The position numbers and the translations under genes are program-made. Positions 746-62,828 of a stretch of DNA of 64,000 nt are shown in pieces. The notes below the pieces were generated by a model. It was given only the letters and a program-made list of their open reading frames with translations. It made no database searches and had not been told where the DNA came from. The DNA is from Chlamydiota bacterium. Lineage in GTDB: Bacteria > Auribacterota > JACPWU01. The stretch covers positions 20,621 through 84,620 of the forward strand of contig JACOUC010000034.1 in assembly GCA_016178055.1 (NCBI GenBank), read 5' to 3'. The first letter of the stretch is position 1; each line of letters starts with the position of its first letter.

Positions 746-1387
746 ATGTATTACCCCGTTTTTTTGAATTTGAAAGGGAAAACATCGGCCATTTTTGGTG
801 GGGGACCTATTGCTTTAAGAAAGGCAGAATCCCTTATTGATTGTGGTTCAAAGGTTTGCGTCTATGCGCCGGAGGTCATTCCTGAGATTGAGAATTTGGC
901 TAAGAAAGAGAAAATTATTTGGGAAAAAAAGGTTTATGAACCCGATGATTTAGTGGGAGTTCATTTAGTGATTGCTTCAACGAATGATCGATTGATCAAC
1001 GCGGCTATTTTTAGAGAAGCTGAGGAGCGGGGGCTTTTTGTCAATGTGGTGGACGATCCTGAATTATGTAATTTTATTGCGCCCAGTATCTTACGGCGAG
1101 GTAAATTAGTGATTGCCGTTTCCACGGAAGGGGCAAGTCCTGCGATGGCGAAAAAGATACGTCAAGATCTTGAATTAGAATTTGGTCCAGAATATGCGCT
1201 TTTCTTGAAGGCCATGGAAAGCTCACGCAAGGATATTCAAGAACGTCTCCCCAAAGAAGAGCAACGTAGAGAATTTTTTACTCAATTGGTCCATTCTAAT
1301 ATTCTCGAACAGATTCGTTTAGGTTTAAACGCAAACGAAATTCAAAAGGTGATAAATCAGAAAATAGAGAAATTTTTATGCGCTTGA
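746..1387 (+). CDS. precorrin-2 dehydrogenase / sirohydrochlorin ferrochelatase (siroheme synthase N-terminal-domain type, SirC/Met8-like)
   Basis: 213 aa; Rossmann N-terminus FGGGPIALRKAESLIDCGSKVCVYAP typical of CysG-N/SirC; first gene of heme precursor operon. Confidence 0.6.
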   Translation: MYYPVFLNLKGKTSAIFGGGPIALRKAESLIDCGSKVCVYAPEVIPEIENLAKKEKIIWEKKVYEPDDLVGVHLVIASTNDRLINAAIFREAEERGLFVNVVDDPELCNFIAPSILRRGKLVIAVSTEGASPAMAKKIRQDLELEFGPEYALFLKAMESSRKDIQERLPKEEQRREFFTQLVHSNILEQIRLGLNANEIQKVINQKIEKFLCA

Positions 1388-1932
1388 GAATTTGGGGGGG
1401 TGTTATTCTTGTCATTGTGCTTGTGGTAGGAATTTTGGCGCTTATCTTGCCTTCTTCTTTTCATAAAGGCATTCCTTCTTTCAATGCTTTTTGGTTTGGG
1501 ACACATGTTTTTCTGTCGCTTTTGGGTTATGCCGCCTTTACTATTTCCTTCATCAGCGGATTTTTTTACCTCGTTCTAGAACGGGAGCTGAAACTGAAGA
1601 CTTCAGCTCCTCTTCTGAGTCGGCTTCCTCCTCTTGAATATATTGAGCTTATAAGTTTTCGTTCTCTCTGGGCAGGAACTCTTCTTTTGGGATTGGGTTT
1701 AATCAATGGTATTTTCTGGGCCTGGTGGGGGAAGGTGTCTTTAAAATATAATGATCCCAAGGTCATGTTTTCGTTTTTAACATGGCTTATTTATGGCGTC
1801 ATTCTTTATATTCGCTCCGCTACACGTTGGCGGGGAAGAAAGGTGGCTTATCTTTCTATGATTGGTTTTGCGTTGATTCTTATTAATTTTTTTATCATGA
1901 ATTATGTATCAAAAGGACATGGCTTCTTTTAA
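1378..1932 (+). CDS. HemX/CcsA-family cytochrome c assembly-like integral membrane protein
   Basis: Polytopic membrane protein with Trp-rich segment FWAWWGKV; position immediately upstream of hemA as in hemAX operons; start overlaps previous gene stop. Confidence 0.4.
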   Translation: MRLRIWGGVILVIVLVVGILALILPSSFHKGIPSFNAFWFGTHVFLSLLGYAAFTISFISGFFYLVLERELKLKTSAPLLSRLPPLEYIELISFRSLWAGTLLLGLGLINGIFWAWWGKVSLKYNDPKVMFSFLTWLIYGVILYIRSATRWRGRKVAYLSMIGFALILINFFIMNYVSKGHGFF

Positions 1933-2083: not shown

Positions 2084-3133
2084 ATGAATATCCAAGTCAT
2101 TGGACTTAATCATAAAACGGCGGATGTGGCCTTGCGAGAAAAGTTGGCGTTTAGCCAGCCTCAGGCCATGGAATGTCTGAAACGTATTCGGGAGTTGGGC
2201 CTTGCCTCAGAGGCGTTGGTTCTCTCGACCTGTAACCGTGTGGAGTTTTATAAGGTCTGGGACAGGTCTGATTCTCTTGAAAGTCTAGCCAAATTTCTAG
2301 GGCAATTTCATAAAGTGAGCATTCCTGATTTTGAAAAATCCCTTTATTTTTACGAAGGGCGTGATGCTGTCCGTCATTTGTTTCGTGTGGCTTCAGGGCT
2401 TGACTCTATGGTGGTTGGAGAAACAGAAGTTTTGGGCCAAGTGAAAAAGGCTTATCAGTTGGCGAGCGAGATTCAATCAACAGGTCTTATTTTAAACACC
2501 CTTTTCCAAAAATCTTTTTATGTGGCCAAACTTTTACAGAGTACGACGAAGATTCACGAAGGGAGTCTTTCGGTAAGTTCTGTTGCTGTCCAACTTGCAG
2601 AAAAAATTTTCGGAAGTTTATTTTCAAAAACGGTTCTTCTGGTCGGAGCGGGTAAGGTCAGCGAACAAACGGTTCGTAAACTGGTCGAGAAAGGTGTGAA
2701 AGGAATTATTGCCTCCAATCGCTCTTTTGAAAAAGCGCAAAGCCTGGCTCAAAAGTTTTCAGGAAAGGCAATCCGGTTCGATGAAATTAAAACGCAAGGG
2801 ATTGAGGCTGATATCTTGATCAGTTCAACCGCAGCTCCTCATTTTATTTTGCATCGAGAGGATGTTCTTGAACTGATGGATCGGCGCCGGCAGCATTCGC
2901 TTTTTATGATTGATATTGCTGTTCCCCGCGATATTGATCCGGAGGTCAACGCCTTGGATAATGTTTATCTCTATAATATTGATGATTTAAAGGGGATTGC
3001 AGAAAAAAATTTACAAGAGCGATTGAAGGAATGTGAAAAGGCGGATGCTTTGGTCGAGGAAGAAACAGGACGATTTATGAATCGATATCAGGTAATGATC
3101 ACTCGATCGAATGGAATATCAGGAAAAAATTAA
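2084..3133 (+). CDS. hemA: glutamyl-tRNA reductase
   Basis: 349 aa; VIGLNHKTA..VLSTCNRVEFY catalytic Cys motif, NAD-binding GAGK segment. Confidence 0.9.
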   Translation: MNIQVIGLNHKTADVALREKLAFSQPQAMECLKRIRELGLASEALVLSTCNRVEFYKVWDRSDSLESLAKFLGQFHKVSIPDFEKSLYFYEGRDAVRHLFRVASGLDSMVVGETEVLGQVKKAYQLASEIQSTGLILNTLFQKSFYVAKLLQSTTKIHEGSLSVSSVAVQLAEKIFGSLFSKTVLLVGAGKVSEQTVRKLVEKGVKGIIASNRSFEKAQSLAQKFSGKAIRFDEIKTQGIEADILISSTAAPHFILHREDVLELMDRRRQHSLFMIDIAVPRDIDPEVNALDNVYLYNIDDLKGIAEKNLQERLKECEKADALVEEETGRFMNRYQVMITRSNGISGKN

Positions 3134-4069
3134 ATGAAGACCTATTGGGTGATTGCAAGTCGGGGGAGCAAGCTCGCGTTGTGGCAGGCTCGATTTGTTC
3201 AAGAGCAAATTTCGGAAATTTTTCCAGATTTTGAAATTAAGATTAAAATAATCAAAACTTTAGGAGATACCCAAAGAAGTCAAAAATTGTGGGAAATGGG
3301 TGGAAAAGGTGTTTTTACCAAAGAATTAGAAGAGGCTCTTTTATCAAAAGAAGCCGATTTTGCTGTTCATAGTTTGAAAGATCTTCCGACCCAATTACCT
3401 TTGGGTTTATGTTTAGGAGCCGTTCCCGTTCGTGAGTCACCCCAAGATGTTTTGGTGTCCAAAGATCATGTCCGTTTTGAATATCTTCCACAAGGGGCTC
3501 GTGTTGGAACCTCGAGTTTTCGCCGACGTTCTCAACTTCTTTCTACGCGGCCTGATCTTGTAGTGGAAGAGATTCGAGGAAATGTTTCGACCCGTATTAA
3601 AAAAGTTTATGAAGGTCCTCTCGATGCGGTGGTGCTTGCAAAAGCTGGAATGATACGTTTAGGGCTGGAAGAATGGATCACCCAGGAATTCGCTTTTGAA
3701 GAAATGCTTCCGGCCGTAGGTCAAGGAGCCTTAGCGGTTGAAATTCGAAAGGATGACCGTGAGGCGCAAGAACTATTGAACCCTCTTCAGGATGAGGATC
3801 TTTTTTGTGCTACGGGGGCCGAACGGGCTTTTTTAGATTGCTTAGGGGGAGGATGTCGTCTTCCGATTGCAGCCTATGGAGAGGTAGCGGGTGATGAATT
3901 ATCTCTTGAGGGACTTGTAGCCACGCCTGATGGGAAAAAAATAATTCGTAAAAAAATTTTTGGAAATAAAAGTGATTTTGAAAAATTAGGAAAACAATTG
4001 GCCCAATCGATGTTGGAAGAAGGGGCAAGTAAAATGATTCATAGGAGCCGTGATTCATCTTTTTTTTGA
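3134..4069 (+). CDS. hemC: hydroxymethylbilane synthase (porphobilinogen deaminase)
   Basis: 311 aa; GSKLALWQA N-terminus, GGGC dipyrromethane cofactor Cys region; directly abuts hemA. Confidence 0.9.
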   Translation: MKTYWVIASRGSKLALWQARFVQEQISEIFPDFEIKIKIIKTLGDTQRSQKLWEMGGKGVFTKELEEALLSKEADFAVHSLKDLPTQLPLGLCLGAVPVRESPQDVLVSKDHVRFEYLPQGARVGTSSFRRRSQLLSTRPDLVVEEIRGNVSTRIKKVYEGPLDAVVLAKAGMIRLGLEEWITQEFAFEEMLPAVGQGALAVEIRKDDREAQELLNPLQDEDLFCATGAERAFLDCLGGGCRLPIAAYGEVAGDELSLEGLVATPDGKKIIRKKIFGNKSDFEKLGKQLAQSMLEEGASKMIHRSRDSSFF

Positions 4070-4522
4070 TTTTTTAAAAACTTGAACGAGGGCTTCTAAA
4101 TCAATTTTATCATGAGGACGACCGGCTTCTTTTTTAGCTTGAATCAGATCTTTTAGGCTGATCAAATGAATTTTTTCTTTTCCATAAAAGACCTGTTTTC
4201 TCCTTTTCCAAGCCTCTTCAAATGGAAGCTTACCAATTCCCATCAAAATATCGATTCTGTTTGGCTCCATCCCAATTTGATAGACCATTTTAACATTACA
4301 AAGATCATCCAGTGATAAATTTCCAACAGGAGCACCAAATTTTTCAAGTAGTTTATAGACTTTTTCGGCGTTATCTGAGTCAGGTTTAATCCAAATATCC
4401 AAATCCTTGGTGTAGCGAGGTTCCGTATAAACAATCACGGCATAAGCCCCTACAACCAAGTATTTAGCCTTTGCGGAGTTTAAGAGATGCAACAGTTCTT
4501 CGAAGTCTCTGTTGATGGGCAT
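4055..4522 (-). CDS. minimal nucleotidyltransferase-fold protein (MNT-like, G..Y..DLD motif)
   Basis: 155 aa; LVVGAYAVIVYTEPRYTKDLDIWI matches Pol-beta-like NTase GS/x9-13/DxD core; 3' end overlaps hemC stop by 15 bp (convergent). Confidence 0.45.
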   Translation of the reverse strand: MPINRDFEELLHLLNSAKAKYLVVGAYAVIVYTEPRYTKDLDIWIKPDSDNAEKVYKLLEKFGAPVGNLSLDDLCNVKMVYQIGMEPNRIDILMGIGKLPFEEAWKRRKQVFYGKEKIHLISLKDLIQAKKEAGRPHDKIDLEALVQVFKKSKKR

Positions 4523-4701
4523 AACCTGGCTTCCAGTTGGCTAGATCGCATACCATATTCCAAGCGGCCTCAAATTTTCCCTGGGTACCGATCCTTTTCC
4601 AGAAGAGGAGATCAAAATCACGACGGGCCTCTTTTAATGGAACCAATCGGCTCATCATCATTCTTCTTTTCTTCATCTTCGGATTCATTGTAAGGATGGT
4701 A

Positions 4702-5880
4702 TCATATTTCTGGCTGAACACGTTCAGCTTTTGGGGGTAGAAATGCCAAGATCATTTCCTTGCGTGTTCGGTATCCTTCTTTTCCCTTGGCTAGCAAACC
4801 CATTAGACGCAGTTCATTGATATCCCGTGATAATGTTTTTGTAGTTTTTCTTGCATAGGATGCGGCTACCCGGGGGCTTACCTCAGTCAATCTATCAAAA
4901 GGAATAGGACCCTCTGTCAAAGATAGATCTAATATGAGATGGCGACGACGGACGTCACCCAGAGACGTTTTATCACGAAAAGATTCGTGGACGTAATTGC
5001 GCCAGACCACATCCCATTGCTGATCGCGAATACGTTCAAGCTGTGATTTTAGACCATCTACAAAACCTTGAACTGCATATTCAATGAAAGGAAGAATATC
5101 TCCTCCAGATTGGCTTGCATAGTCCAGTTGACGGTAATACTCAGTTCTTGTTTGATTGTAATGATTGCTGAAAAGATGCGCGGCAGGTGCAGGCACCCCT
5201 GAACTAATCAAAATCTGAAATTCGACAAGTCGTGCGGTTCTTCCATTACCATCGTCGAATGGATGAATCCAGGCCAGATAAAGATGTGACAAGACAGCTT
5301 TCAAAATAGCGTACACAATTTCCATATTTTGAGGTGCTTTAAAATTTTCTCCATTGAGCCAATCGCATAATCTTTGAAGTAAAAGTTCACATTCTCCAGC
5401 CGGAGCCCCTTTGTAACGGGCTACGCCAACTTGATGTTTTCTCGATTCACCAGGAATAACTTCTGCTGCGAGGTTTAGTTTGTTTAAAACAATTTTGTTC
5501 AATGCCTTGATTGTTTCAGGCCTGAGCGCCAGCTGGCGACCTTGCCGAATTTCTTCCAAGATTTGATTACATCCTTCAAGAATGTTGTCGATCTCCTGAG
5601 CTAAATATTCGCGAGATGGAGGTAGCTTTAGTTTACCTTCAAGATGCTGAAGAACTTCTTCTTCTGATAAAGTGTTGCCTTCAATCGCTGTAGTGGCCAG
5701 GGCTCCTTTGGCTAGATAGAGTTGATAAAGTTTTTCTGCTGTATTTGGGCGAAGAGGAACGCCTGCAATATGTGCGCATTTTGACTGTGCTTCTCCAAGA
5801 AGCAACCACAATTTGGGAGAGGCCGTTCTCAAATCTATGTAAAACTTTAACCAAGGATGTGTCTCTTTATATGTCTCCAT
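4702..5880 (-). CDS. Fic family protein (class II, with N-terminal inhibitory TxxxEGN motif)
   Basis: 392 aa; canonical Fic motif HPFDDGNGRTARL; upstream TTAIEGNTLS matches [ST]xxxE[GN] alpha-inh; C-terminal wHTH-like tail. Confidence 0.85.
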   Translation of the reverse strand: METYKETHPWLKFYIDLRTASPKLWLLLGEAQSKCAHIAGVPLRPNTAEKLYQLYLAKGALATTAIEGNTLSEEEVLQHLEGKLKLPPSREYLAQEIDNILEGCNQILEEIRQGRQLALRPETIKALNKIVLNKLNLAAEVIPGESRKHQVGVARYKGAPAGECELLLQRLCDWLNGENFKAPQNMEIVYAILKAVLSHLYLAWIHPFDDGNGRTARLVEFQILISSGVPAPAAHLFSNHYNQTRTEYYRQLDYASQSGGDILPFIEYAVQGFVDGLKSQLERIRDQQWDVVWRNYVHESFRDKTSLGDVRRRHLILDLSLTEGPIPFDRLTEVSPRVAASYARKTTKTLSRDINELRLMGLLAKGKEGYRTRKEMILAFLPPKAERVQPEI

Positions 5881-6119: not shown

Positions 6120-7676
6120 ATGACTCAAGAAAAAAAAGGTAAAGTCTATCTTGTCGGGGCGGGGCCAGGAGATCCAGGGCTTTTGACTGTGAAGGCACTT
6201 CATCTCATCCAAGAGGCAGACGTTCTTGTCTATGATGCTCTGGTCTCTGAGAATATTATTCGTAATGCTCCTTCCAGTGTCGAACTTATTTTTGTTGGGA
6301 AAAGAGGTGGGGAAGTTTCCGTTTCTCAAAAAGAGATTGAAGCGATTTTAATTGAAAAGACTCATCAAGGGAAAACGGTCGTTCGATTGAAAGGGGGAGA
6401 TCCCTTTATTTTTGGCCGAGGAGCTGAAGAGGCTTTATTTCTAACCCATCAAGGAATTGATTGGGAGGTGGTTCCCGGCGTATCCTCTGCAGTTGCAGTT
6501 CCAGCCTATGCAGGGATTCCCTTAACGCATCGAGATTTTACTTCATCAGTAGGTTTTTTGACAGGTCATGAAAATTCAAGAGAGGAAGAGAGTCAGATCC
6601 CTTGGTCTAAAATTTCGACTGGTTTAGGTACACTGGTTTTTTTAATGGGGGTTTCTCAACTACAACATATTGTTCACGAGCTTATTCGGAATGGACGGCC
6701 CACCTCAACTCCCTGTGCCATGGTTATGTGGGGGACGCTTCCAAGGCAAAAAACAGTTGTAGGAAATTTGTCCGATGTCGTTGGAAAGGTAAAAGAGGCT
6801 GGGTTAGAGGCGCCTTCTATTTTTATTGTTGGAGAAGTGGTTAGACTTCGGGAAAAGCTTAACTGGTTTGAAAAGGGACCTCTTTTTGGGAAAAGGATTT
6901 TAGTCACCCGCTCAAGAGAACAAGCCAGTACATTGGTTAATACTCTAGAAAAATTGGGGGCAGACCCTATTGAGTTTCCCGTGCTTCAGGTGGTTCCCCC
7001 TGAAAATTGGGCTCCGATCGACCAGGCGATTTTTCATTTAGCAAAATTTAACTGGATTGTTTTTACCAGTGTCAATGCGGTCAATATTTTTTTAGAACGT
7101 TTGAAGCTTCATTTAAAAGATATTCGAGATTTAAAAGGAATCAAAATTGCGGCCATGGGTGATGTAACGCGTGAAGCGCTTGAAAAATACAGCATCAGCG
7201 TTGATTTAACCCCTCGCGAATTTGTTTCGGAGGCCTTGCTAGAAAGTTTTAAGGAGTTAGGAAATCTTAAAAGTCAAAATTTTCTTTTACCTCGAGCCGA
7301 GGGGGCGAGAATTCTTCTTTCTGAGGGATTAAAAAAAGAAGGGGCTTGGGTGACGGATATCATTCTTTATAAAACAGTCTATCCTCCGATCCATGAAGGA
7401 TCTTCGTTCCTCCATGAAATTTTTAATTCTAAAATGGACTGGGTTACTTTTACCAGTTCCTCTACAGTCAAAAATTTTGTTGAGAGTTTGGGAAATCATT
7501 TTGAATCCTTAAAAAATCATTTTAAGGTGGCCAGCATAGGTCCCATTACTTCGGCTACAGCCCGAGGATTAGGTTTAAAGGTGGATATTGAAGCAAAGGT
7601 TCATACGATTGAAGGTTTGGTAGAGGCGTTGGTGGAGTATGAAAATCCAGAAATCAAATATCAAAAATCAAAATGA
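6120..7676 (+). CDS. cobA/hemD: uroporphyrinogen-III C-methyltransferase / uroporphyrinogen-III synthase fusion (CobA-HemD); C-terminal ..IKYQKSK tail and stop supplied by Family A repeat
   Basis: 518 aa; N-terminal VYLVGAGPGDPGLLT SAM-dependent tetrapyrrole methylase; C-terminal ~250 aa HemD-like (RILVTRSREQ..); last ~8 codons plus TGA lie inside repeat arm. Confidence 0.85.
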   Translation: MTQEKKGKVYLVGAGPGDPGLLTVKALHLIQEADVLVYDALVSENIIRNAPSSVELIFVGKRGGEVSVSQKEIEAILIEKTHQGKTVVRLKGGDPFIFGRGAEEALFLTHQGIDWEVVPGVSSAVAVPAYAGIPLTHRDFTSSVGFLTGHENSREEESQIPWSKISTGLGTLVFLMGVSQLQHIVHELIRNGRPTSTPCAMVMWGTLPRQKTVVGNLSDVVGKVKEAGLEAPSIFIVGEVVRLREKLNWFEKGPLFGKRILVTRSREQASTLVNTLEKLGADPIEFPVLQVVPPENWAPIDQAIFHLAKFNWIVFTSVNAVNIFLERLKLHLKDIRDLKGIKIAAMGDVTREALEKYSISVDLTPREFVSEALLESFKELGNLKSQNFLLPRAEGARILLSEGLKKEGAWVTDIILYKTVYPPIHEGSSFLHEIFNSKMDWVTFTSSSTVKNFVESLGNHFESLKNHFKVASIGPITSATARGLGLKVDIEAKVHTIEGLVEALVEYENPEIKYQKSK

Positions 7677-7765
7677 CAAACCAAAATTTAAAATACTTCC
7701 CTTGCAAGGGTGCTAGAATATTTTTGAATTTTGATGTGTCATTTTGCATTTTGATTTTTGGATTC
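7645..7765. repeat. Family A palindromic MITE/REP-like element (copy A1)
   Basis: Left arm aaatcaaatatcaaaaatcaaaatgacaaaccaaaatttaaaat, unique centre, right arm attttgatgtgtcattttgcattttgatttttgg (inverted). Confidence 0.8.
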
Positions 7766-8609
7766 TAAATTAATTATGAAGCTAGGTAAATTTGAAATCT
7801 ATGTTATTTCTGACGGTCTCTTTCAATTGGATGGCGGGACGATGTTTGGCATTGTTCCTAAGGTGATTTGGTCTAAATTTCTTCAAGTTGATCAAAATAA
7901 CATGGCTTTATGGGGGACGCATTGCCTTTTGGTTGTTGTGAAAGGTAAAAAGATTTTAATTGAAACGGGAATTGGATCAAAGCTTGATTCCAAGAAAAAG
8001 AAAATTTATGGTCGATCAGATGATGGAGCTTTTTCACAAAATTTAAAGAAAGCAGGTTTTAGTTTTGAGGAGATTGATTTTGTCATTCCAACCCATTTAC
8101 ATATGGATCATGCAGGAGGCTTTACTTGTTTTGAAAATGGAAAATTAAAGACGCGGTTTTCAAAGGCCCGATACTTGATTCAGAAAAAAGAATGGGAGGC
8201 TGCGATTCATCCTACGCGTTTGAGTCGGGGATCGTATTGGGAGGAGAATTTTTTGCCTGTCTTGGATCATCATCAGGTAGAATGGCTTGATGGAGATATA
8301 GAGTTGTTGCAAGGTCTCGATATTATGCTGACGGGTGCCCATAGCCAAGGCCATCAGGCGATTAAAATTTTTTCAGAAGGGAAAACACTTTTTTGTGGTG
8401 GGGATCTTATCCCGAGCCGTTGGCATGTTCGCCAAACTTTTGTTTGTGCTTATGACCTTTGCCCGATGGAGGTGAGTGAATTAAAAACCAAGTGGTTAGA
8501 GAGGGCCTATCAGGAAGATTGGATTCTTCACTGGTACCATGATCCTGAAATGCCCTTTGGAAAAGTCAATAAAGAAGGGGAGAATTTTGTAGGAGACCTC
8601 CGAAAGTGA
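7758..8609 (+). CDS. MBL-fold metallo-hydrolase
   Basis: 283 aa; HLHMDHAGG (HxHxDH) zinc-binding motif. Confidence 0.7.
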   Translation: MDSKLIMKLGKFEIYVISDGLFQLDGGTMFGIVPKVIWSKFLQVDQNNMALWGTHCLLVVVKGKKILIETGIGSKLDSKKKKIYGRSDDGAFSQNLKKAGFSFEEIDFVIPTHLHMDHAGGFTCFENGKLKTRFSKARYLIQKKEWEAAIHPTRLSRGSYWEENFLPVLDHHQVEWLDGDIELLQGLDIMLTGAHSQGHQAIKIFSEGKTLFCGGDLIPSRWHVRQTFVCAYDLCPMEVSELKTKWLERAYQEDWILHWYHDPEMPFGKVNKEGENFVGDLRK

Positions 8610-8617
8610 GGAATTGT

Positions 8618-8737
8618 ATGCCCTATCCCATTCATCGATTGAGACGATTGCGTCAAAATAAAATTTTACGAAGGAATGCTCAAGGAACTGAAGCCTATGG
8701 CTCTGGTTTCCTTGCCAGAAAAGATTCATTGGATTGA
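8618..8737 (+). pseudogene. hemB: hemB (porphobilinogen synthase) 5' remnant, about 39 codons only
   Basis: MPYPIHRLRRLRQNKILRR closely matches conserved HemB N-terminus (..QRPRRLRKSPALR..); ORF stops after 39 aa, rest of gene absent before tRNA-Asp. Confidence 0.45.
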
Positions 8738-8808
8738 AATGATTCGGAAAACGATTTTCTAACTCCGAAAGAAAAAATGACAAATGTACTTAAAGCTACA
8801 GAAAAATC

Positions 8809-8882
8809 CGGGAGTGACGGGGCTCGAACCCGCGACCTCTGCCGTGACAGGGCAGCGCTCTAGCCAATTGAGCTACACCCCC
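8809..8882 (-). tRNA. tRNA-Asp (anticodon GTC)
   Basis: Minus-strand cloverleaf: GGGGGTGTAGCTCAATTGGCTAGAGCGCTGCCCTGTCACGGCAGAGGTCGCGGGTTCGAGCCCCGTCACTCCCG; 7-bp acceptor stem, anticodon loop CTGTCAC, T-loop GGTTCGAGCC; CCA not encoded. Confidence 0.8.
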
Positions 8883-8887
8883 AACAT

Positions 8888-9016
8888 TAAATCAACATTC
8901 AAAAACCAAAATGCAAAATGACAATGTAAAATTTAAAACTTCCTTTTCGCAATAGCATTAGATCATTTTTGGATTTTGATATGTCATTTTGATGTTTGAT
9001 CTTTGATTTTTGAATT
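8888..9016. repeat. Family A palindromic element (copy A2)
   Basis: aaaaccaaaatgcaaaatgacaatgtaaaatttaaaa .. ttttggattttgatatgtcattttgatgtttgatctttgatttttgaa. Confidence 0.8.
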
Positions 9017-9018
9017 TA

Positions 9019-10254
9019 CTACATATTTTCTACAATCGCCTGACCAAATTCAGAGCATTTGAGAAGCTTAGCCCCTTCCATCTGGCGTTCTAAATCGTAG
9101 GTAACCCGCTTTTGAAGAAAGGTCTTGCGAAGTCCTTTCACCACTAAATCAGCTGCCTCTTGCCATCCCAAATATTCCAACATCATAACCCCAGAAAGAA
9201 TCAAAGAGCTAGGATTAATCTTATCCTGGCCTGCGTATTTGGGAGCTGTACCATGAGTCGCCTCAAAAACAGCAACTTCTTCTCCAATATTGGCACCCGG
9301 TCCAAGGCCCAATCCACCCACTTGGGCCAATAAGGCATCGGACATATAATCTCCATTCAAATTCGGAAGAGCAAGTACACTATAGTCAGAAGGCCTCAAC
9401 AAAACCTGTTGAAACATCGCATCAGCAATCACATCATTGATTAAGATTTTATCCTTAGGTCTTTTACCGCCAAAATTTTTTTCAATATCCTCATAGGTTA
9501 CTAATTCTCCTGAAAATTCCTGCCGAGCCAATTCATAACCCCATTCTCGAAAGGCCCCTTCCGTAAACTTCATAATGTTGCCCTTATGAACCATCGTCAC
9601 CGAAGATTTGTGGTGACGAATCGCATATTGAACGGCCATGCGAATTAAACGCTTGGAGCCCATGACGCTCATGGGTTTAACGCCAATACCAGAATCAGGA
9701 CGAATTTTACAACCCATCTCTTCATTCAGAAAACGGATCACTCTCTCTACTTCTTTGGACCCTTGCTTCCATTCAATCCCGGCATAAACATCTTCCGTAT
9801 TTTCTCGAAAAATCACCATGTCAACGAGTTCAGGTCTTTTAATCGGGGAAGGGACCCCTTCAAAATATCGAACGGGCCTCACACACGCAAAAAGATCTAA
9901 TTCTTGACGAAGCGTAACATTCAGACTACGAATTCCCCCTCCGACCGGAGTTGAAAGAGGCCCTTTAATCCCTACCCGAAATTCGCGAAGCGTCTGAAGC
10001 GTTTCTTCAGGAAGCCAATGATTCATTTTGCTCTTTGCCTTTTCACCGGCAAAAACTTCTAACCATTGAATCTCCCTTTTCCCGTCATAGGCCTTCTTCA
10101 CGGCAGCATCCCACACAGGTTGAGTTGCAGCCCAAATATCGGGTCCAACGCCATCGCCCTCAATGTAAGGAATAATCGGCTTAACGGGTACTTTTAATTT
10201 TCCTCCCTCTTTCACAATGGGAGAACCTTTTTCTAACACGTCATTTCGCATCAT
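9019..10254 (-). CDS. icd: NADP-dependent isocitrate dehydrogenase
   Basis: [44 protein letters not shown] near-identical to Icd core; true start taken at MMRNDV (the 22-codon upstream extension in the ORF track is translation of repeat A3). Confidence 0.85.
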
Positions 10255-10269
10255 CGAAACCCTCCGCCA

Positions 10270-10402
10270 AAAAATCCAAAATTCGAAAATCAAAATGCAA
10301 AATGACAAATCAAAATCCAAAAATTTCTAGTGCTATTGCAAAGGTAAAATTTTAAATTTTACAATGTCATTTTAGTTTTTGATTTTTGCATTTTGGATTT
10401 AA
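10270..10402. repeat. Family A palindromic element (copy A3) filling the entire icd/aminotransferase intergenic gap
   Basis: aaatccaaaattcgaaaatcaaaatgcaaaatgacaaatcaaaatccaaaaat .. acaatgtcattttagtttttgatttttgcattttggattt. Confidence 0.8.
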
Positions 10403-11580
10403 AAAAATTTCCTAAAGAAACTTTCAATCCTGTCCACACCCTTTTTAATATTTTCCATCGAAGTCGCATAGGAAAGACGGATATAATCATCCGCCCCAAA
10501 AGGTGCTCCTGGAACAACCGCCACATGGGCTTCTTCGAGCAAACGCTGAGAAAGTTTCGCTGAACCAATCCCATAGCGAGCCACATTCGGAAAAACATAA
10601 AACGCACCTTCAGGCTTTCGAACATGTACTTTGGGTATTTGGTTCAGCCGATCCACAATAGTGTCTCTTCTTTCTTGGAAGGCCTTAGCCATTTTCTTCA
10701 CACATTCATCCGTCCCTTTTAAAGCAGCAACCGCCGCCTTCTGAGAAATGGACGTTGGATTGGATGTGCTATGACTCTGCAAACGATTCATCGCACTTAC
10801 AATTTGACTGGGCCCGGCCAAATAACCGATACGCCAACCGGTCATGGAATAGGATTTTGAAACCCCATTCACCACCAAGGTTTGGTCCTTATTAAAATTA
10901 GCCAAACTCGTATGCTTCATTTCATCGTAAAGCAGCTCTGAATAAATTTCATCGGAAATAACATAAACTCCACCTGAAAATACAATCTTCGCAATCTCCT
11001 TTAATTCATCCTGGGTATAGGCAGATCCGGTTGGATTAGATGGGCTGTTCATGATAATGACTTTTGTCTTCCGACTCACAACCTTTTTAAGATTAACTGG
11101 ATTAATCTTAAAACCCTCTTCCTCCCGAGTTCTTAAAAAAACGGGCGTCGCATTGGCCAACCGTACCAGTTCAGGATAGGTCACCCAATAGGGAACAGGA
11201 ATAATCACCTCATCATCCTTATCGCACAAAGACAAAATCGCATTAAATAAGGAATGTTTCGCCCCGCAAGAAACAATAACGTTTTCGGGAGCATAGTCTA
11301 AATTCTGATCTTTCTTAAATTTTTCGCAAATGGCCTTCTTAAGCTCGAGCGTTCCCCCTGAAGGCGTATATTTTGTAAAACCTTCATCAATGGCCTTCTT
11401 CGCAAACTCCTTAATATGATCAGGAGTATCAAAATCCGGCTCTCCAGCCGCAAAACTCACCACATCCACACCTTGAGCTTTTAATTCCCCTGACCGAGCA
11501 TTGATCGCCAAAGTTTCAGACTCACTGATCGCCATCACGCGTTTAGCCAAAACGGTATGTGTTTTAAGAAGGGTATTCAT
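10399..11580 (-). CDS. pyridoxal-phosphate-dependent aminotransferase (aspartate/aromatic aminotransferase class I)
   Basis: 393 aa; SFAAGEPDFDTP..YTPSGG, NSPSNPTG, SKSYSMTGWRIGY (PLP lysine region). Confidence 0.8.
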   Translation of the reverse strand: MNTLLKTHTVLAKRVMAISESETLAINARSGELKAQGVDVVSFAAGEPDFDTPDHIKEFAKKAIDEGFTKYTPSGGTLELKKAICEKFKKDQNLDYAPENVIVSCGAKHSLFNAILSLCDKDDEVIIPVPYWVTYPELVRLANATPVFLRTREEEGFKINPVNLKKVVSRKTKVIIMNSPSNPTGSAYTQDELKEIAKIVFSGGVYVISDEIYSELLYDEMKHTSLANFNKDQTLVVNGVSKSYSMTGWRIGYLAGPSQIVSAMNRLQSHSTSNPTSISQKAAVAALKGTDECVKKMAKAFQERRDTIVDRLNQIPKVHVRKPEGAFYVFPNVARYGIGSAKLSQRLLEEAHVAVVPGAPFGADDYIRLSYATSMENIKKGVDRIESFFRKFF

Positions 11581-12852: not shown

Positions 12853-12880
12853 TGAAAATCAAAAATCAAATATCAAAAAT
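12853..12880. repeat. Family A half element (left arm only)
   Basis: aaaatcaaaaatcaaatatcaaaaatcaaaat without inverted partner. Confidence 0.5.
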
Positions 12881-13039
12881 CAAAATTGTGGAGTTTAATG
12901 AGATAGGACAAAAACTGAACAGACAAGCCTAAGGAAAAGGAGCGTACAGCCGCCAACAAAAAAGATGTGTTAATAAAACCTTACCAGCGGTTTAGTGCTG
13001 ACCGCTGTACGCATTGATTGAATGTCTTCGTTTTACCTT

Positions 13040-16880: not shown

Positions 16881-17930
16881 ATGGCAGAAACTCTTGAAAA
16901 AACACTTTCAAAATACACCATCGAAGGAGAGCTTTATAGCCTCCTCCCCGATGGAAAAATTCAATGTTATGCCTGTGGTCATTTATGCAAAATCGCCCCC
17001 GACCATCGAGGGGTGTGTCTCGTCCGATCCAATCGAGATGGAAAACTTTATGTCCCTTTTGGCTACGTGGGAGCCCTTCAGCATGATCCCATCGAGAAAA
17101 AACCTTTCTTTCACGCCCTTCCAGGCTCGTCTGCCTTAAGCTTTGGAATGCTGGGATGTGATTTTCACTGTTCGTATTGTCAAAATTGGTTCACCTCTCA
17201 GGCCTTAAGAGACCCTCAAGCAGAATCCTCACCTCATCCCATCAGTCCCCAAGAACTGGTCCGTCTGACACAAAAATATCAAGCCCCTGTCATTGCCAGC
17301 ACTTACAATGAACCCTTGATTACCAGTGAATGGGCTGCCGCCATTTTCAAAGAAGCCAAACGAGCAGGCCTTAAAACAGCCTATATCTCAAATGGGAATG
17401 CGACAGAAAGGGTGCTTGATTATCTTCGTCCCTGGGTTGATCTTTATAAAGTGGATCTAAAAAGTTTTGACGAAAATCATTATCGCCAACTCGGAGGGCA
17501 GCTCCAAACAGTCCTTAAAACGATTTCTCTTCTGAAAGAAAAAGGATTTTGGGTAGAAGTTGTCACTCTGTGTATTCCTGGATTTAATGATTCCGATCAA
17601 GAGCTCAAAAAAATAGCCCAATTTCTTGTTTCTATTTCAAAAGAAATTCCCTGGCATGTCACCGCCTTTCATCAAGACTACAGAATGCAGGATCGAAACG
17701 GAACACCTGCCTCCACCCTTTTAAGGGCCGCCCACATTGGAAAAGAAGCCGGACTTGATTTTGTCTATGCTGGGAATCTTCCGGGTCAGGTTGGAGAATT
17801 TGAGAATACACATTGCCCTCATTGTCAGACAACGATTATTGAACGTTTGGGTTTTAATGTGATTAAAAATCGACTAGTCAATGGCCAATGCCCACAATGT
17901 CAAACTAAGATTCCAGGAGTGTGGGAGTAG
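16881..17930 (+). CDS. AmmeMemoRadiSam-system radical SAM enzyme (PFL-activating-enzyme-like)
   Basis: 349 aa; N-terminal CYACGHLCKIAPDHRGVCLVRSNRDGKLY signature, radical SAM cluster GCDFHCSYCQNW, C-terminal CPHC/CPQC. Confidence 0.8.
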   Translation: MAETLEKTLSKYTIEGELYSLLPDGKIQCYACGHLCKIAPDHRGVCLVRSNRDGKLYVPFGYVGALQHDPIEKKPFFHALPGSSALSFGMLGCDFHCSYCQNWFTSQALRDPQAESSPHPISPQELVRLTQKYQAPVIASTYNEPLITSEWAAAIFKEAKRAGLKTAYISNGNATERVLDYLRPWVDLYKVDLKSFDENHYRQLGGQLQTVLKTISLLKEKGFWVEVVTLCIPGFNDSDQELKKIAQFLVSISKEIPWHVTAFHQDYRMQDRNGTPASTLLRAAHIGKEAGLDFVYAGNLPGQVGEFENTHCPHCQTTIIERLGFNVIKNRLVNGQCPQCQTKIPGVWE

Positions 17931-17936
17931 GTCGTA

Positions 17937-18060
17937 ATATCAAAAATCAAAATGCAAATATCAAAATGACAAACTAAAATTTAAATAGTTAAAACCTAAG
18001 ACGTTGCAAAATTTTGGATTTCAATCTGTCATTTTGATTCTTGTCATCATGAACTTTCAG
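17937..18060. repeat. Family A palindromic element (copy A5)
   Basis: atcaaaaatcaaaatgcaaatatcaaaatgacaaactaaaatttaaat .. ttttggatttcaatctgtcattttgattcttgtca; additional arm-like fragment at 18128-18165. Confidence 0.75.
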
Positions 18061-21262: not shown

Positions 21263-22534
21263 TTAATTTTGGATCTTGATTTTTGAATTTTGGATTTTTA
21301 AAGACACCACCACTTCGCAATGTTGGGTTTGAGGAAATAAATCAATGGGTTGAATACGGTCAAGGTGATATCTTTTTTTGACGAGGAAACTCAAATCCCG
21401 AGCCAGAGTGGTTGGATTACAAGAAACATAGACCACCTGAGGAGTCCCTAAAGTGACAAGGGATTCTAGAACACTTGGGGTACAACCGGCACGGGTTGGA
21501 TCAAGAATAATGCGATCGGGACTCTCCCCGAGATCTTTTTTTCCCTGTTTTAAAAATTTCTCTACACTTTTTTCAACAAATTTACAATTTGAAAGTCCAT
21601 TCTCTTGGGCATTGATTTTAGCAAAGGAAATTGCACTTTCGTCGGACTCCACGCCTACACATTTTCTAACCTTAGAACCTAAAAAAACACCGAAAAGTCC
21701 CACACCACAGTAAGTATCCAGCAAAAATTCATCCCCTTTAAGTTCTAAAAAATCCCGAACGCACTGAATCAGAAAAGGAATGGTCTCCAAATTCACTTGA
21801 AAAAAAGAGAGTGGAGGAACCTTGAAAGTTTTTCCATCCACCTTTAAAGAAATAAACTCAAATCCCCTTAAATCTACTTTCCCACAATGGCTTAAAAAAA
21901 ATTCCTCAACTCCATTTTCAGTCTCCCAAAATTTAATCCCTTGAGTCCATTCAGGGATATGGTCCTCTCCTTTAAGAATTTTTTGACGGAGCATTTGGTA
22001 AGCTTGATTAATTTGAGGAGAAGTGATTGGGCAATGATCCACGTCAATAACAGACTCGTTCGACCGATTCACAAAGCCGATTTTAATTTCATCTCTATCT
22101 CTCACAACATGGAAATCCACCCGACTACGATATCCATAAGCCTGAGAAGAACCAATAATAGGCTCTATTTCAAAATCTTTTAATCGTCCAATTCTTTCAA
22201 GGGCATCACGAACCTGATTCTCTTTTATTTTTAACTGGTGAGGATAATCAATATGCTGGTATTGACAGCCACCACATTCACCAAAGACAGAGCAGGAAGG
22301 TTTGATTCGATGCGAAGAAGGCTCTAAAATTTCTTTTACACGGGCCCGCAAAAATTTTTTTTTGACTTGAATCACCTCCGCTAAAACCTTCTCTCCATCA
22401 ATCCCCCCCTCCACAAAAATAACTAAACCGTCCAAACGAGCAACGGCTTCTCCGCCAAAGGCGATGGAATCCAATTGAAGTTCAATGAGATCACCGAAAC
22501 AATATTTTGATGATGGATTTTCCATAGGATTCAC
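21263..22534 (-). CDS. rlmD: 23S rRNA (uracil-5)-methyltransferase, TRAM-domain RumA/RlmD family; C-terminal [11 protein letters not shown] tail from Family A half-repeat
   Basis: 423 aa; TRAM N-terminus, 4Cys cluster, TYCGVGLFG SAM motif, DPTRAGC. Confidence 0.8.
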   Translation of the reverse strand: MNPMENPSSKYCFGDLIELQLDSIAFGGEAVARLDGLVIFVEGGIDGEKVLAEVIQVKKKFLRARVKEILEPSSHRIKPSCSVFGECGGCQYQHIDYPHQLKIKENQVRDALERIGRLKDFEIEPIIGSSQAYGYRSRVDFHVVRDRDEIKIGFVNRSNESVIDVDHCPITSPQINQAYQMLRQKILKGEDHIPEWTQGIKFWETENGVEEFFLSHCGKVDLRGFEFISLKVDGKTFKVPPLSFFQVNLETIPFLIQCVRDFLELKGDEFLLDTYCGVGLFGVFLGSKVRKCVGVESDESAISFAKINAQENGLSNCKFVEKSVEKFLKQGKKDLGESPDRIILDPTRAGCTPSVLESLVTLGTPQVVYVSCNPTTLARDLSFLVKKRYHLDRIQPIDLFPQTQHCEVVVSLKIQNSKIKIQN

Positions 22535-22544
22535 TGATGGAATT

Positions 22545-22672
22545 TTAAATCAAAAACCAAATATCAAAAATAAAAATGACAGATTAAAATCCAAAATGTA
22601 TCTACGCTTAGTTTTGTGAAAAATTTCGATCTTTGATTTGTCATTTTGATATTTGCATTTTGATTTTTGATA
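22545..22672. repeat. Family A palindromic element (copy A7)
   Basis: aaatcaaaaaccaaatatcaaaaataaaaatgacagattaaaatccaaaat .. ctttgatttgtcattttgatatttgcattttgatttttgat. Confidence 0.8.
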
Positions 22673-22679
22673 TAAGAAA

Positions 22680-30474: not shown

Positions 30475-30488
30475 ATCATAACCTCTGA

Positions 30489-30616
30489 AAATCCAAAATC
30501 CAAAAATCAAAATGCAAAATGACGATCCAAAATTCAAATATTTTTAACGCAACGACATGGGAAACATTTTGGATTTTGATGTGTCATTTTGATTTTTGAT
30601 TTTTGATTTTTGATTT
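30489..30616. repeat. Family A palindromic element (copy A8) between dgt start and der stop
   Basis: aaatccaaaatccaaaaatcaaaatgcaaaatgacgatccaaaattcaaat .. ttttggattttgatgtgtcattttgatttttgatttttgatttttgattt. Confidence 0.8.
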
Positions 30617-31939
30617 ATAAGTAAATTGTATGGGAACCCCTTCAAAACCAAATTTTTTTCGAAACTCTCGTTCTAGAAAAAACCGGTAGGACTCTTTCAC
30701 AAAGTTTGCCTGATTGACTTGAATACTAAATTGAGGGGGGGTTACTCCATCCTGAGTCATCGAAAAAAATCGAGGGACATGTCCTTGTTCACTGGGAGGT
30801 TGACGAAACTCTATCGCCCGATGAATAAATTTGTCTAGATCGTCTTCTGAAATTCGAACCCGCGCATTGTCATAAACTTGAATAATTTTTTGAATTAAAT
30901 TTTCGATTCTAAACCCTGTTAAGGCTGAACAAAAAATCATAGGATAAATCTCCAAAAACTTCCACCGTGAGACCAGCATCTTAGAAAATTCTTTTTCAGG
31001 TGCTTCTTTAACCAGATCCCATTTATTCAAAGCCAAGACACATCCCTTCATGCCTCTACGAATCTCATCCAAAATCCTGACATCTTGAGCACTCACTCCA
31101 GAGGCACCATCTAAAACTAAAACCGAAAGATCAGCCCGGCGAATACTGTTTAAAGCCCGCATGACACTGAAAGTCTCAGGGCCCCTTCGAACCTGTTTTC
31201 TCTTACGCATCCCGGCGGTATCCACAAAAACAAAGGGTCGTCCTCCAATTTCAATCTCGACATCTACCGCATCCCGTGTGGTTCCAGGAGCATCATCTAC
31301 AATTAAACGTTTTTTTCCAAAAAGATGATTGATCAGGGTTGATTTTCCTACATTGGGTTTTCCAACCACCGACACTTTAATCGCATCAACAACAGGAATC
31401 ACTTTTTGATCTTTATTCTCATCGCTTTTTTCAGGTTTTTCTAATATTTCTTCTACAAAATCCATTAATTCTGAAATACCTCGCCCATGGGTTGCAGAAA
31501 TCATCACCACCGGTTCAAAACCTAATTGATGAAACTCTCGAGCGGCCAATTCCTCATTCAGATTATCTACTTTATTGACCACCAAAAACACCTTTTTCCC
31601 AGATTCTCTAACCCACCTGGCCACCTCTCGATCCAGTGACGTGATCCCTTCTTGGACATCGACTGTAAAAAGTAAAAGGCTGGCTTCTTTTAAAGCTTCG
31701 CGGACCTGTTCGCGAACTTGTTGATGAAGAGAATCCTTTTCTCGAAGATCCACACCTCCGGTATCCACCAAATTAAAGAGAAGTCCATTGGATTCACAAC
31801 GTGTCTGAACCCGATCACGTGTCACACCCGATTCTTCATGAACAATTGAAATCCGATGGCCTACAAGACGGTTAAAGAGCGTCGATTTTCCGACATTGGG
31901 TCGACCAATAATGGCAATGGTATTTTTTTTAAGCATCAT
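30584..31939 (-). CDS. der: ribosome-biogenesis GTPase Der (EngA), double GTPase domain; C-terminal KIKNQKSK tail and TGA from Family A repeat
   Basis: Two P-loops GRPNVGKST and GKPNVGKST, KH-like C-terminus. Confidence 0.9.
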   Translation of the reverse strand: MMLKKNTIAIIGRPNVGKSTLFNRLVGHRISIVHEESGVTRDRVQTRCESNGLLFNLVDTGGVDLREKDSLHQQVREQVREALKEASLLLFTVDVQEGITSLDREVARWVRESGKKVFLVVNKVDNLNEELAAREFHQLGFEPVVMISATHGRGISELMDFVEEILEKPEKSDENKDQKVIPVVDAIKVSVVGKPNVGKSTLINHLFGKKRLIVDDAPGTTRDAVDVEIEIGGRPFVFVDTAGMRKRKQVRRGPETFSVMRALNSIRRADLSVLVLDGASGVSAQDVRILDEIRRGMKGCVLALNKWDLVKEAPEKEFSKMLVSRWKFLEIYPMIFCSALTGFRIENLIQKIIQVYDNARVRISEDDLDKFIHRAIEFRQPPSEQGHVPRFFSMTQDGVTPPQFSIQVNQANFVKESYRFFLEREFRKKFGFEGVPIQFTYKSKIKNQKSK

Positions 31940-37532: not shown

Positions 37533-38066
37533 TTAAGCTGTAGGTCCTGACGGATTCGTACTGGTAGAGTCTGCGTGTCCATCAACGAAAACTACGTTCG
37601 CCGGACGTGGAGCATCATGAGGACCAACAACAGTAACACCAGCAGCATTAGTAAATTCCTGGTCAATAGCAACAGGTGAATCTGAGGCAGAATTCTCATT
37701 CAAGGTATTGTCATACTGATATTGGATACTCGCTGCAATAAAGGCACTCGCTGCAATTGTTGTTCCGGTAGAAGGGCATTGAAAAACATTTACGTCTGTC
37801 ATGTATAAAGATGTCCTTAGAAGATCTAAAGAGCTCTTCCCTTGACCAGCAATCCCTGTCGTAGGAAATAACTCTCTATAATCAATCGAGTAGGTATGAA
37901 TTGATGTAATAATCTGCTTTAAATTATTCAAGCACTTGGTCTGACTTGCACGGCGACGGGCTTTGGCTAGGGCTGGGAGGAGCATGCTGGCCAAGATCGC
38001 AATGATGGCGATAACGACGAGGAGCTCAATTAATGTAAATCCTTTTTTACTTTTCCTAATCTTCAT
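37533..38066 (-). CDS. prepilin-type N-terminal cleavage/methylation domain protein with H-X9-DG (DUF1559) C-terminus, paralog 1
   Basis: [63 protein letters not shown]. Confidence 0.8.
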
Positions 38067-38369
38067 AACTTTTTCTCCTTTTTGTTCAAAATTGATTTAG
38101 TCCTTTAACCTACCCATCTAACAGCAATGCCTAAGTCAATTAGCAATTCCTATATAGTAGCAATTCCTAAGCCAAAATAATATTTAAAAAAAATATTTTA
38201 TAATTATTTTTAAGTACCTTATTTACAATTAATTATAGAAAATAAATTTTAATGTGTTTTAAAAACATTTTATTTTAAGAATTTAAGGAATGTGTGGTTT
38301 TCGCTCAAAAAGAGCTTAAAAAACGCGTTTTAGATTTTTTATTTATGAAAAAGTAAGAGCGGGAATATT

Positions 38370-38942
38370 CTATTCGCTTGTATTGGTAGGATCTTTAGAA
38401 GTTCCACTGGCATGACCATCAACGTAAACCACATTAATGGACAAGGGATCATCATGATTGCCCTTGCTCATCATTCCACCTAAATCAAGAGCCCCATCAT
38501 CATTGGCTACAGCTGAATCACTCGAACTAAATTCCGATAAAGTTCTATCATATTCATAATCAACTCCTTCAAAAGTACTCACATTCTCTTTCGCATCTCC
38601 AGCTGGGCATTTCATAACATTACTGTATTGAGGAAAATATTGTAATGTTCGAAGCAAATTCAAAGATTTTTTCCCATTGTAGGAAAGAGGGTTAATTGGG
38701 GCCGGTTGATCAATCTCTCCAGTCGTTGGAAATTTTTCACGATAATCCATGGAATACGTATGAATAGCCATGATGATCTGTCGAAGATTACTTAAACATT
38801 TTGTTTGGCTGGAACGGCGACGGGCCTTAGCTAAAGCTGGAAGTAGCATACCAGCAAGAATTGCAATAACTGCCATGACCACAAGGAGTTCAATAAGAGT
38901 GAAACCTCGATTGAGTCGCTTACCATTAATCTGCCTTAACAT
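38370..38942 (-). CDS. prepilin-type/DUF1559 protein, paralog 2
   Basis: [64 protein letters not shown]. Confidence 0.8.
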
Positions 38943-38951
38943 ATTATGCTT

Positions 38952-39521
38952 CTATTCGCCTGTGTTTCCAGGATCGGTGGTAACGCTGTCCTCATGTCCA
39001 TCTACGTAGACAACATTAAAGGCTTTGGGGGCATCGTGATTCCCTGGGTGAGTATCATCCGCCCCCTTTGGATCGTCATCGTTCGCAACAGCTGAATCAC
39101 TCGAGCTAAATTCAGATAACAGATTGTCATATTGATAATCAACTCCCCTGTAGTCACTATCATCGGTAGCATTACCCGAAGGACACCTAAGGACGGGCGA
39201 GCCATGAAAAGGGCCTGTTGGTGAACCTGCCGCAGGGATAGGCAAATACCCAGACCGTGCAAGCAAGCATAAAGATGCCTTACCTCCATGATTATCATCT
39301 TTTGTCCCTCCAGTGTTTGGAAAAAGCTCTCGATAATCCATTGAATAGGTATGAATGGCCATGATGATTTGACGGAGGTTGTTCAGGCATTTAACCTGAT
39401 TTGCCCGGCGGCGGGCTTTGGCAAGGGACGGCAAGAGCATGCTGGCCAAAATGGCAATAATGGCTATGACCACCAATAGTTCAACCAGCGTAAACCCTCG
39501 TTTTTTGGAATATTTATACAT
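38952..39521 (-). CDS. prepilin-type/DUF1559 protein, paralog 3
   Basis: [64 protein letters not shown]. Confidence 0.8.
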
Positions 39522-40905: not shown

Positions 40906-40971
40906 ACTCTTTCTTCCCCTTTCAAGTTTTGAAATAATCTTCGTTATTTTCAATAAAATTAAATTAACAGT

Positions 40972-41100
40972 GAAAATCCAAAAATCAAACATCAAAAACC
41001 AAAATGACAAATCAAAATTAAAATATTTTTCAAGACAAAGACACAGATAAATTTTGAATTTTAGTTTGTCATTTTGATTTTTGGATTTTGATTTTTGATA
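40972..41100. repeat. Family A palindromic element (copy A9) between prfB start region and lnt stop
   Basis: aaaatccaaaaatcaaacatcaaaaaccaaaatgacaaatcaaaattaaaat .. attttgaattttagtttgtcattttgatttttggattttgatttttgat. Confidence 0.8.
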
Positions 41101-45859: not shown

Positions 45860-46030
45860 GTTTTCTTCAGGCCAATCTGGCTCAAGCTCTTGCGTCTCGG
45901 TTCACGCGTCTATTGCAAAATCTGGGTTTAATTCCAGAAGGGACGAGTCTAGCAATTAGGCTCTTGATTTTCAAGAACGATTGGAGGGTCAAATTCAAAA
46001 TGCAAAATGACAGACAAAAATTCAAAATTC
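45860..46030. repeat. Family H repeat copy 2 plus Family A half element (left arm) upstream of secA
   Basis: ctggctcaagctcttgcgtctcggttcacgcgtctatt; caaattcaaaatgcaaaatgacagacaaaaattcaaaattc. Confidence 0.5.
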
Positions 46031-59678: not shown

Positions 59679-59689
59679 TCACATCACCC

Positions 59690-59870
59690 CTCTTTGAGCT
59701 TTGAACCTTCGACTTGATTTCCTTCTTTCTCTTCTAGCTTCCAGCCTCTAGCGTCTAGCTCGCTTTCTGTTTTTGCCTCGAGCTCCTGCCCCGTCGGATG
59801 ACTTGGGGTCGAGCTTCCAGCCTCGAGCAGTCTTTTTTTGAACTTTGAACCATCTCTAAGGCAGCACCCT
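59690..59870. repeat. composite Family C/Family B repeat block between batB and batA
   Basis: ctttgagctttgaaccttcgactt..tctagcttccagcctctagcgtctagctc (28-mer identical to 2009-2036)..cctcgagctcc..ggtcgagcttccagcctcgagc..gaactttgaacc. Confidence 0.6.
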
Positions 59871-61773: not shown

Positions 61774-61776
61774 AGA

Positions 61777-62679: not shown

Positions 62680-62700
62680 TTATTCACTCGCATGAATTAA

Positions 62701-62828
62701 TATCAAAAATCAAAAATCAAACATCAAAATGACAGATCAAAATTCAAAATGGCTCACAAGTTAGGATATAGAGATGATTTTTACATTTTGACTTGTCATT
62801 TTGATTTTTGCATTTTGAATTTTAAATT
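62701..62828. repeat. Family A palindromic element (copy A11) between moxR and DUF58 genes
   Basis: tatcaaaaatcaaaaatcaaacatcaaaatgacagatcaaaattcaaaat .. ttttgacttgtcattttgatttttgcattttgaatttt. Confidence 0.8.

Follow-up and report, generated by a model that had tools for sequence, protein, structure and literature searches.

A truncated 5′ remnant of hemB, probably left by a large rearrangement, ends the heme operon of a Chlamydiota-labelled groundwater bacterium

To our knowledge, porphobilinogen synthase (HemB, also ALAD; PF00490) is the only route from 5-aminolevulinate to porphobilinogen. The enzyme has an N-terminal arm with the motif M-x-[FY]-P-x-x-R-x-RRLR-x4-LRR, and a TIM barrel with the Schiff-base lysines and a metal-binding motif. 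In operons of the Bacillus hemAXCDBL type, hemB closes the core order hemA-(hemX)-hemC-hemD-hemB, and hemX codes for a CcsA-like protein. Truncated pseudogenes at the boundaries of rearrangements or deletions are found in reduced or host-associated bacteria. For some chlamydiae, a complete loss of heme synthesis is reported (PMC11809670).

We analyzed a 64-kb stretch of DNA (64,000 nucleotides, hereafter the window) from the metagenome-assembled genome (MAG) of an uncultured groundwater bacterium labelled Chlamydiota. Its heme operon shares the core gene order and the CcsA-like hemX with the Bacillus type, but here sirC leads, hemX stands before hemA, hemD is fused to cobA, an MBL-fold gene precedes hemB, hemL is missing from the operon, and hemB is truncated. 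What is left of hemB is a short open reading frame (the stub), in which residues 1-19, and less clearly those up to 24, carry the arm motif. As with true HemB genes, the stub starts at the hemB position of its clade and is translationally coupled to the gene before it. Unlike HemB, it covers ~6% of the protein: with Pfam, the full ~320-330-aa TIM-barrel domain (PF00490) was absent from the 39-aa product, and the Schiff-base lysines and the metal-binding motif, which lie beyond residue ~110 in the HemB of relatives, are lacking in a stub that ends at residue 39. Hence, the product cannot make porphobilinogen, and we infer that it has no function of its own. The locus is an ordinary truncated pseudogene, a kind of thing that is already known: a 5′ fragment with intact start signals, an abrupt loss of homology, a loss of synteny downstream, further small lesions in the operon, and a lineage labelled Chlamydiota. 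It differs from truncated pseudogenes of reduced genomes in that the neighboring genes of the pathway show no decay. It also differs from the trace of a tRNA-targeted integrative element, as the window has neither an integrase gene by the tRNA nor a directly repeated tRNA 3′ end.

The first-pass annotation had recognized a 39-codon reading frame and assigned it to the N-terminus of HemB. Both the frame and its assignment were confirmed, and the features of the region are collected in Table 1. A HemB profile was built from 18 full-length HemB proteins, and later from 22, when four closer HemBs were added with the same result; on the hemB of a relative left out of profile building it scored 2e-165. 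Among 2,545 six-frame fragments of the 64 kb, the stub was the sole match to this profile (E = 0.002-0.003, 14 bits). Residues 1-24 of the stub paired with profile positions 1-24 (of 324), so that Met1 fell on profile position 1, and the arm motif (R-x-RRLR ... LRR) was found at the protein start, as in HemB. When the stub N-terminus (MPYPIHRLRRLRQNKILRR) was compared with the HemB N-termini of two relatives, L203 (MFPIHRPRRLRQSECLRR) and L209 (MSFPIHRLRRLRAHPQMRR), 13 of 18 aligned residues matched in L203, and the 9-mer PIHRLRRLR was identical in L209. The HemB N-termini of the relatives, among them MFPIHRPRRLRQSECLRRLLRET and MSFPIHRLRRLRAHPQMRRLVQD, agree with the stub as far as residue 19, and less well from there up to residue 24 (RRNAQGT in the stub vs RRLVRET over this weaker part). 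In the alignment with seven HemB N-termini, M1, R7, R10, L11, R12, L17 and R18 were invariant. At the DNA level, L203 aligned strongly with the stub over codons 1-19.

With 19-24 residues and 14 bits, the match is a short one, and the identification leans partly on positional context. Could a spurious intergenic frame merely mimic HemB through an arginine-rich RLRRLR? The frame is indeed very short and rich in arginine, and searches of Pfam and PDB with the 39-aa peptide alone gave no match, as did a word-indexed protein search; the Pfam and PDB blanks can be put down to the shortness of the peptide. We nevertheless regard a chance resemblance as extremely improbable, given that the profile match was unique among all fragments with the first residues in register, that 9 consecutive residues are identical to the L209 HemB and the L203 DNA aligns over codons 1-19, and that Shine-Dalgarno sequence, strand and coupling to the stop of the MBL-fold gene are those of the real hemB in five relatives. 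The reading frame is very probably a non-functional 5′ remnant of hemB left behind by a large rearrangement.

Table 1. Coordinates of the features in and around the heme operon (window positions, except for the orthologues in relatives).
Feature	Position	Strand	Evidence and remarks
sirC-like precorrin-2 dehydrogenase	746..1387	+	Pfam; first gene of the operon
hemX/CcsA-like membrane protein	1378..1932	+	184 aa
hemA (glutamyl-tRNA reductase)	2084..3133	+	Pfam; 349 aa, without C-terminal GlutR dimerisation domain
hemC (hydroxymethylbilane synthase)	3134..4069	+	Pfam; intact
Nucleotidyltransferase (DUF2204/DUF6036), 85-aa ORF, Fic-domain protein	4055..5880	-	Pfam; between hemC and cobA/hemD
cobA/hemD fusion (uroporphyrinogen-III methyltransferase + synthase)	6120..7676	+	Pfam; intact
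Palindromic element between cobA/hemD and MBL-fold gene	7638..7773		nhmmer E = 7e-32
MBL-fold hydrolase (MBI1870382)	7776..8609	+	Pfam PF00753; directly upstream of stub
Shine-Dalgarno sequence GAGGA of former hemB	8608..8612	+	Direct sequence reading; overlaps TGA stop of MBL-fold gene (8607-8609)
hemB stub ORF	8618..8737	+	39 codons; ATG 8618, TGA 8735-8737; product MPYPIHRLRRLRQNKILRRNAQGTEAYGSGFLARKDSLD, then stop
hemB remnant portion of stub	8618..8689	+	Codons 1-19 (to 8674) clear homology; codons 20-24 weak
Non-homologous tail of stub ORF	8690..8737	+	Codons 25-39 and TGA; alignment with L203 and L205 DNA collapses
Spacer	8738..8807		70 bp between stub stop and tRNA 3′ end
tRNA-Asp (GTC)	8808..8883	-	ARAGORN; Rfam RF00005, 68 bits; convergent with heme operon
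Palindromic "Family A" element	8884..9020		~135 nt; nhmmer E = 7e-31; beyond the tRNA
Full palindromic copies (n = 8)	7638-7773, 8884-9020, 10266-10401, 17930-18048, 22543-22677, 30483-30618, 40969-41105, 62697-62831
Partial palindromic copies	45991-46034, 12854-12886, 21266-21298
MBL-fold orthologues in relatives	L203 10001-10843; L205 10001-10855; L206 9784-10626; L207 7302-8156; L209 2406-3170

Relatives of the source organism were found through the MBL-fold protein, which led to a small group at 58-67% identity, and their contigs were retrieved. They comprise L203/L204 (GCA_016178005.1, labelled "Chlamydiae bacterium", and a Logan assembly), L205, L206, L207 (GCA_041906865.1) and L209-L212. 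Proteins of the window are 62-71% identical to those of this clade. In all five relatives, and as far as their contigs reach, the order was sirC-hemX-hemA-hemC-cobA/hemD-MBL-hemB, and a full-length hemB (326-333 aa, PF00490) directly follows the orthologous MBL-fold gene, on the strand and at the start site of the stub. Alignment of the locus with relatives, which had been suggested as a check on the assignment, thus supports it. The hemB genes of the relatives start 0-180 bp past the MBL-fold gene, and in L205 and L207 the start overlaps the MBL stop. A scan of GTDB representatives with CobA/HemD, in which the best match was 55% identical and the source species was not represented, retrieved 18 more distant genomes from distant phyla with hemB directly after cobA/hemD; these supplied the HemB proteins for the first profile. 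In the L203 spacer between the MBL-fold gene and hemB (10844-11022), a different palindromic element was observed, with arms on CCAATGAC / GTCATTG; intergenic palindromes therefore seem to be typical of the clade, with divergent sequences. The MBL-fold hydrolase itself shows weak similarity to PF23023 (Apyc1-like). Throughout this clade its gene is conserved in the heme operon, where it stands between cobA/hemD and hemB and is translationally coupled.

Where does the similarity to hemB end? DNA and protein alignments with the relatives placed the loss of homology at codon 19-24 (about 8675-8692), 115-130 bp short of the tRNA-Asp 3′ end. A C-terminal HemB remnant or a frameshifted continuation was not found in any frame of 8675-8810, and the six-frame profile search detected no further HemB fragment on either strand of the 64-kb window. 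The missing 3′ part was also absent from the 4-kb right flank (L208) and the 0.6-kb left flank (L001). Synteny is lost at the same place. Downstream of hemB, L203 and L205 carry genes (mannose-6-phosphate isomerase and the others tested) that have no counterpart in the window, and the block to the right of the stub (tRNA-Asp, isocitrate dehydrogenase [IDH], aspartate aminotransferase [AspAT] and onward) is near hemB in no relative examined. To the right of the tRNA-Asp, the palindromic element is followed by IDH, AspAT and a nucleoside diphosphate kinase (NDK)-like gene, all on the minus strand.

The GC skew changes at the junction as well. To the left, the plus-strand genes have a skew of +0.12 to +0.27; to the right, the skew is -0.06 to -0.28 for minus-strand genes and about 0 to -0.19 for plus-strand genes. 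Since the plus-strand genes on the right are also at about zero or below, the replicative component of the skew flips from positive to negative at the junction. The cumulative GC skew of the window peaks at 8-10 kb, and in the relatives the skew stays at least about zero for 8-10 kb past hemB. The sign change at the junction speaks for an event on a large scale. Both GC skew and gene orientation converge at ~8.7 kb: between 9 and 47 kb, almost every gene is on the minus strand. This convergence would fit a replication terminus or an inversion boundary. We infer one of two types of rearrangement: an inversion that spans at least 59 kb and has its edge at the junction, or a large deletion, such as one across the terminus, that left the junction as its scar. 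The Zn-ribbon gene beside MoxR, considered as a marker of synteny that might reveal an inversion, was only 33% identical to that of the relatives and therefore uninformative.

The first-pass annotation had named the tRNA-Asp on the opposite strand and a Family A repeat as the next features, and had suggested that a rearrangement at the tRNA/repeat junction truncated hemB. A rearrangement that truncated hemB is borne out by synteny that ends inside the stub, and both features exist, but the break falls within the coding sequence at codon 19-24, where no copy of the repeat is found; the repeat itself is on the far side of the tRNA. The tRNA-Asp is the only tRNA and the only Rfam match in the window, and the first gene of the non-syntenic right block. 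No terminator or structured RNA was detected in 8700-8810 (z-scores -0.9 and 0.0).

An element integrated at the tRNA-Asp, or recombination between Family A copies, might still have removed the body of hemB. The tRNA 3′ end faces the stub at a distance of 70 bp, the copies at 7638-7773 and 8884-9020 flank the segment with the MBL-fold gene, the stub and the tRNA, and position 8774 has an 11-mer (AAAATGACAAA) from the core of the repeat. Yet nhmmer with a model of the eight copies found no full or partial copy in 8690-8807 at E ≤ 10, and no second copy of the tRNA 3′ half exists in the window. Furthermore, Pfam searches of 50 ORFs revealed no integrase, recombinase, transposase or phage genes in the window, and the genes on the right are housekeeping genes (IDH, AspAT, PFK, GlmS, GltX, Der, SecA, RF2) rather than an island. 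With no repeat copy detectable at the break, repeat-mediated and tRNA-integration mechanisms are unsupported, and we judge a site-specific event to be very unlikely. The break appears to be an illegitimate or otherwise unmarked event in unique sequence.

The palindromic element consists of an A-rich arm (...ATCAAAATGCAAAATGACA...), a variable center and a complementary T-rich arm. It is absent from the four relatives of the clade that were tested (L203, L205-L207). In relatives cobA/hemD and the MBL-fold gene overlap; in the window a copy separates the two genes. Near-full-length copies (E 1e-11 to 1e-22) were found in many unrelated metagenome contigs with a GC content of ~32% to 55%, so the element is widespread and not private to the source genome. 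A scan of metagenomes with the repeat core gave at least 120 matches on contigs of 31-61% GC, none of them window-like and none with HemB. The repeat core was thus discarded as a tag for the organism, the family being widespread.

A different concern is that the junction was made by the assembler, as a chimeric join, inside hemB, of two loci from the same genome or population; the real chromosome would then carry an intact MBL-hemB pair. The genome abounds in ~135-nt repeats, at which short-read assemblies fall apart, and Logan short-read contigs from the same sample stop within these palindromic elements. Exact look-up in the Logan assemblies found cobA/hemD, hemC, Fic, IDH, AspAT, NDK and MoxR on record, and neither the MBL-fold gene nor the stub: among the genes tested, these two alone are missing from the independent Logan assemblies. 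The switch of GC skew exactly at the junction is also what a misjoin would produce. On the other hand, the break (8675-8807) lies in unique sequence, free of repeat copies, N runs and low-complexity tracts, and with no shared k-mer on which a misjoin could form; a repeat-induced misjoin is therefore unlikely. The same palindromic family is present on both sides of the junction, with one copy on the left and, besides the one next to the tRNA, six full copies on the right, which also argues against a misjoin. Protein accessions are consecutive from cobA/hemD to AspAT (in the region, hemC MBI1870377, Fic ...380, cobA/hemD ...381, MBL ...382, IDH ...383, AspAT ...384 and NDK ...385), and a second series of accessions (MBI3277400-408, beside MBI1870xxx), possibly not from an independent assembly, has the identical order. 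In neither NCBI series is a protein annotated between the MBL-fold hydrolase and IDH; the stub was therefore not called as a protein. Finally, no HemB with the N-terminus of the stub was found in a collection of 5.8 billion proteins, which includes the Logan and NCBI proteins of these samples. An intact hemB at the locus should have been called and found, so its absence argues against a misjoin. Taken together, we consider an assembly artefact unlikely and keep to the reading of a truncated gene at a genuine junction.

On this reading of a genuine junction, the ancestor of the clade would have had the operon sirC-hemX-hemA-hemC-cobA/hemD-MBL-hemB, in which translation of hemB was coupled to that of the MBL-fold gene. 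A large chromosomal rearrangement would then have split hemB at codon 19-24, either as an inversion with one end in hemB or as a large deletion that reached the 3′ flank of the tRNA-Asp and may have spanned the replication terminus. Unrelated sequence would thereby have been fused to the first ~60-75 nt of hemB. With the old ribosome-binding site and ATG surviving, the 39-residue peptide may still be translated at the end of the operon.

The rest of the operon was compared with that of the relatives. Among sites that are invariant in all other sequences, none was changed in hemA (0/52), hemC (0/45) or sirC (0/15), and two were changed in cobA/hemD (2/84). These four genes are full length, and their changes at invariant sites are no worse than in relatives that keep hemB. 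The view that hemA, hemC and cobA/hemD are intact therefore stands; they had also been placed just upstream of the stub, a position that is in fact occupied by the MBL-fold gene. The hemA stop abuts the hemC start. The short form of HemA is shared with L203 (347 aa); L205-L207 have 421-423 aa with the dimerisation domain, and some Verrucomicrobiota loci seem to carry short hemA forms too. Three lesions of the operon are lacking in the four compared relatives. The first is in HemX, which misses the N-terminal 88 residues (about three predicted helices) of the 272-273-aa orthologues of these relatives; this shortening is a second truncation in the heme operon. The second is the insertion of the nucleotidyltransferase and Fic genes, which none of the four relatives has; in these, hemC and cobA/hemD adjoin. 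In the window the nucleotidyltransferase overlaps the hemC 3′ end, and together with the small ORF and the Fic gene it looks like a toxin-antitoxin-type module. The third is the palindrome between cobA/hemD and the MBL-fold gene. The neighboring heme genes being undecayed, the pathway is not (yet) generally eroding; and as they are full length and conserved, either the loss of hemB is recent or its function is supplied from elsewhere.

We lean towards the second of these: the genome would carry, at another locus, a second hemB of divergent or foreign type, or a re-headed 3′ part. A word-indexed search of the protein collection with a 43-aa version of the ORF gave no candidate that shared three 5-mers. 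The lack of any protein with the stub N-terminus argues against a recent intact duplicate; it may be compatible with a divergent or foreign hemB elsewhere. When the hemB of the source MAG was sought with a Nitrospinota HemB (L018), the best 120 matches were all Nitrospinota-like. A very recent loss of hemB, or reliance on externally supplied heme or a precursor, is a serious contender that falls a little short of probable. That porphobilinogen synthase was truly lost with hemA, hemC, cobA/hemD and sirC still under selection, which would leave a patchwork tetrapyrrole pathway, seems highly doubtful. In that event, porphobilinogen might come from a host or partner, or a non-homologous enzyme might catalyze the step from 5-aminolevulinate; for example, the cytosolic ALAD of a eukaryote could supply an intracellular chlamydia-like symbiont. 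If hemB were absent genome-wide with the rest of the operon conserved, tetrapyrrole synthesis would have an unusual gap of a single step. Reconstructions of pathways from the source MAG should not take the stub for a hemB. In a lineage that is rich in repeats and poorly sampled, the stub marks the boundary of a large rearrangement, at which the GC skew switches, and it poses a question that can be checked, namely whether porphobilinogen is still made by this Chlamydiota-labelled organism.

Further genes of the window include a secretin gene (50060-51949) and a BatA/BatD/MoxR/VWA cluster (55907-63824). Three pseudopilin-like genes, paralogous and in tandem, with N-terminal methylation motifs, one of them with a DUF1559 match, were observed at 37533-39521 on the minus strand. 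Pseudopilins of the DUF1559 type are typical of Planctomycetota and Verrucomicrobiota, and for this reason it may be worth checking whether the MAG is rightly labelled "Chlamydiota".
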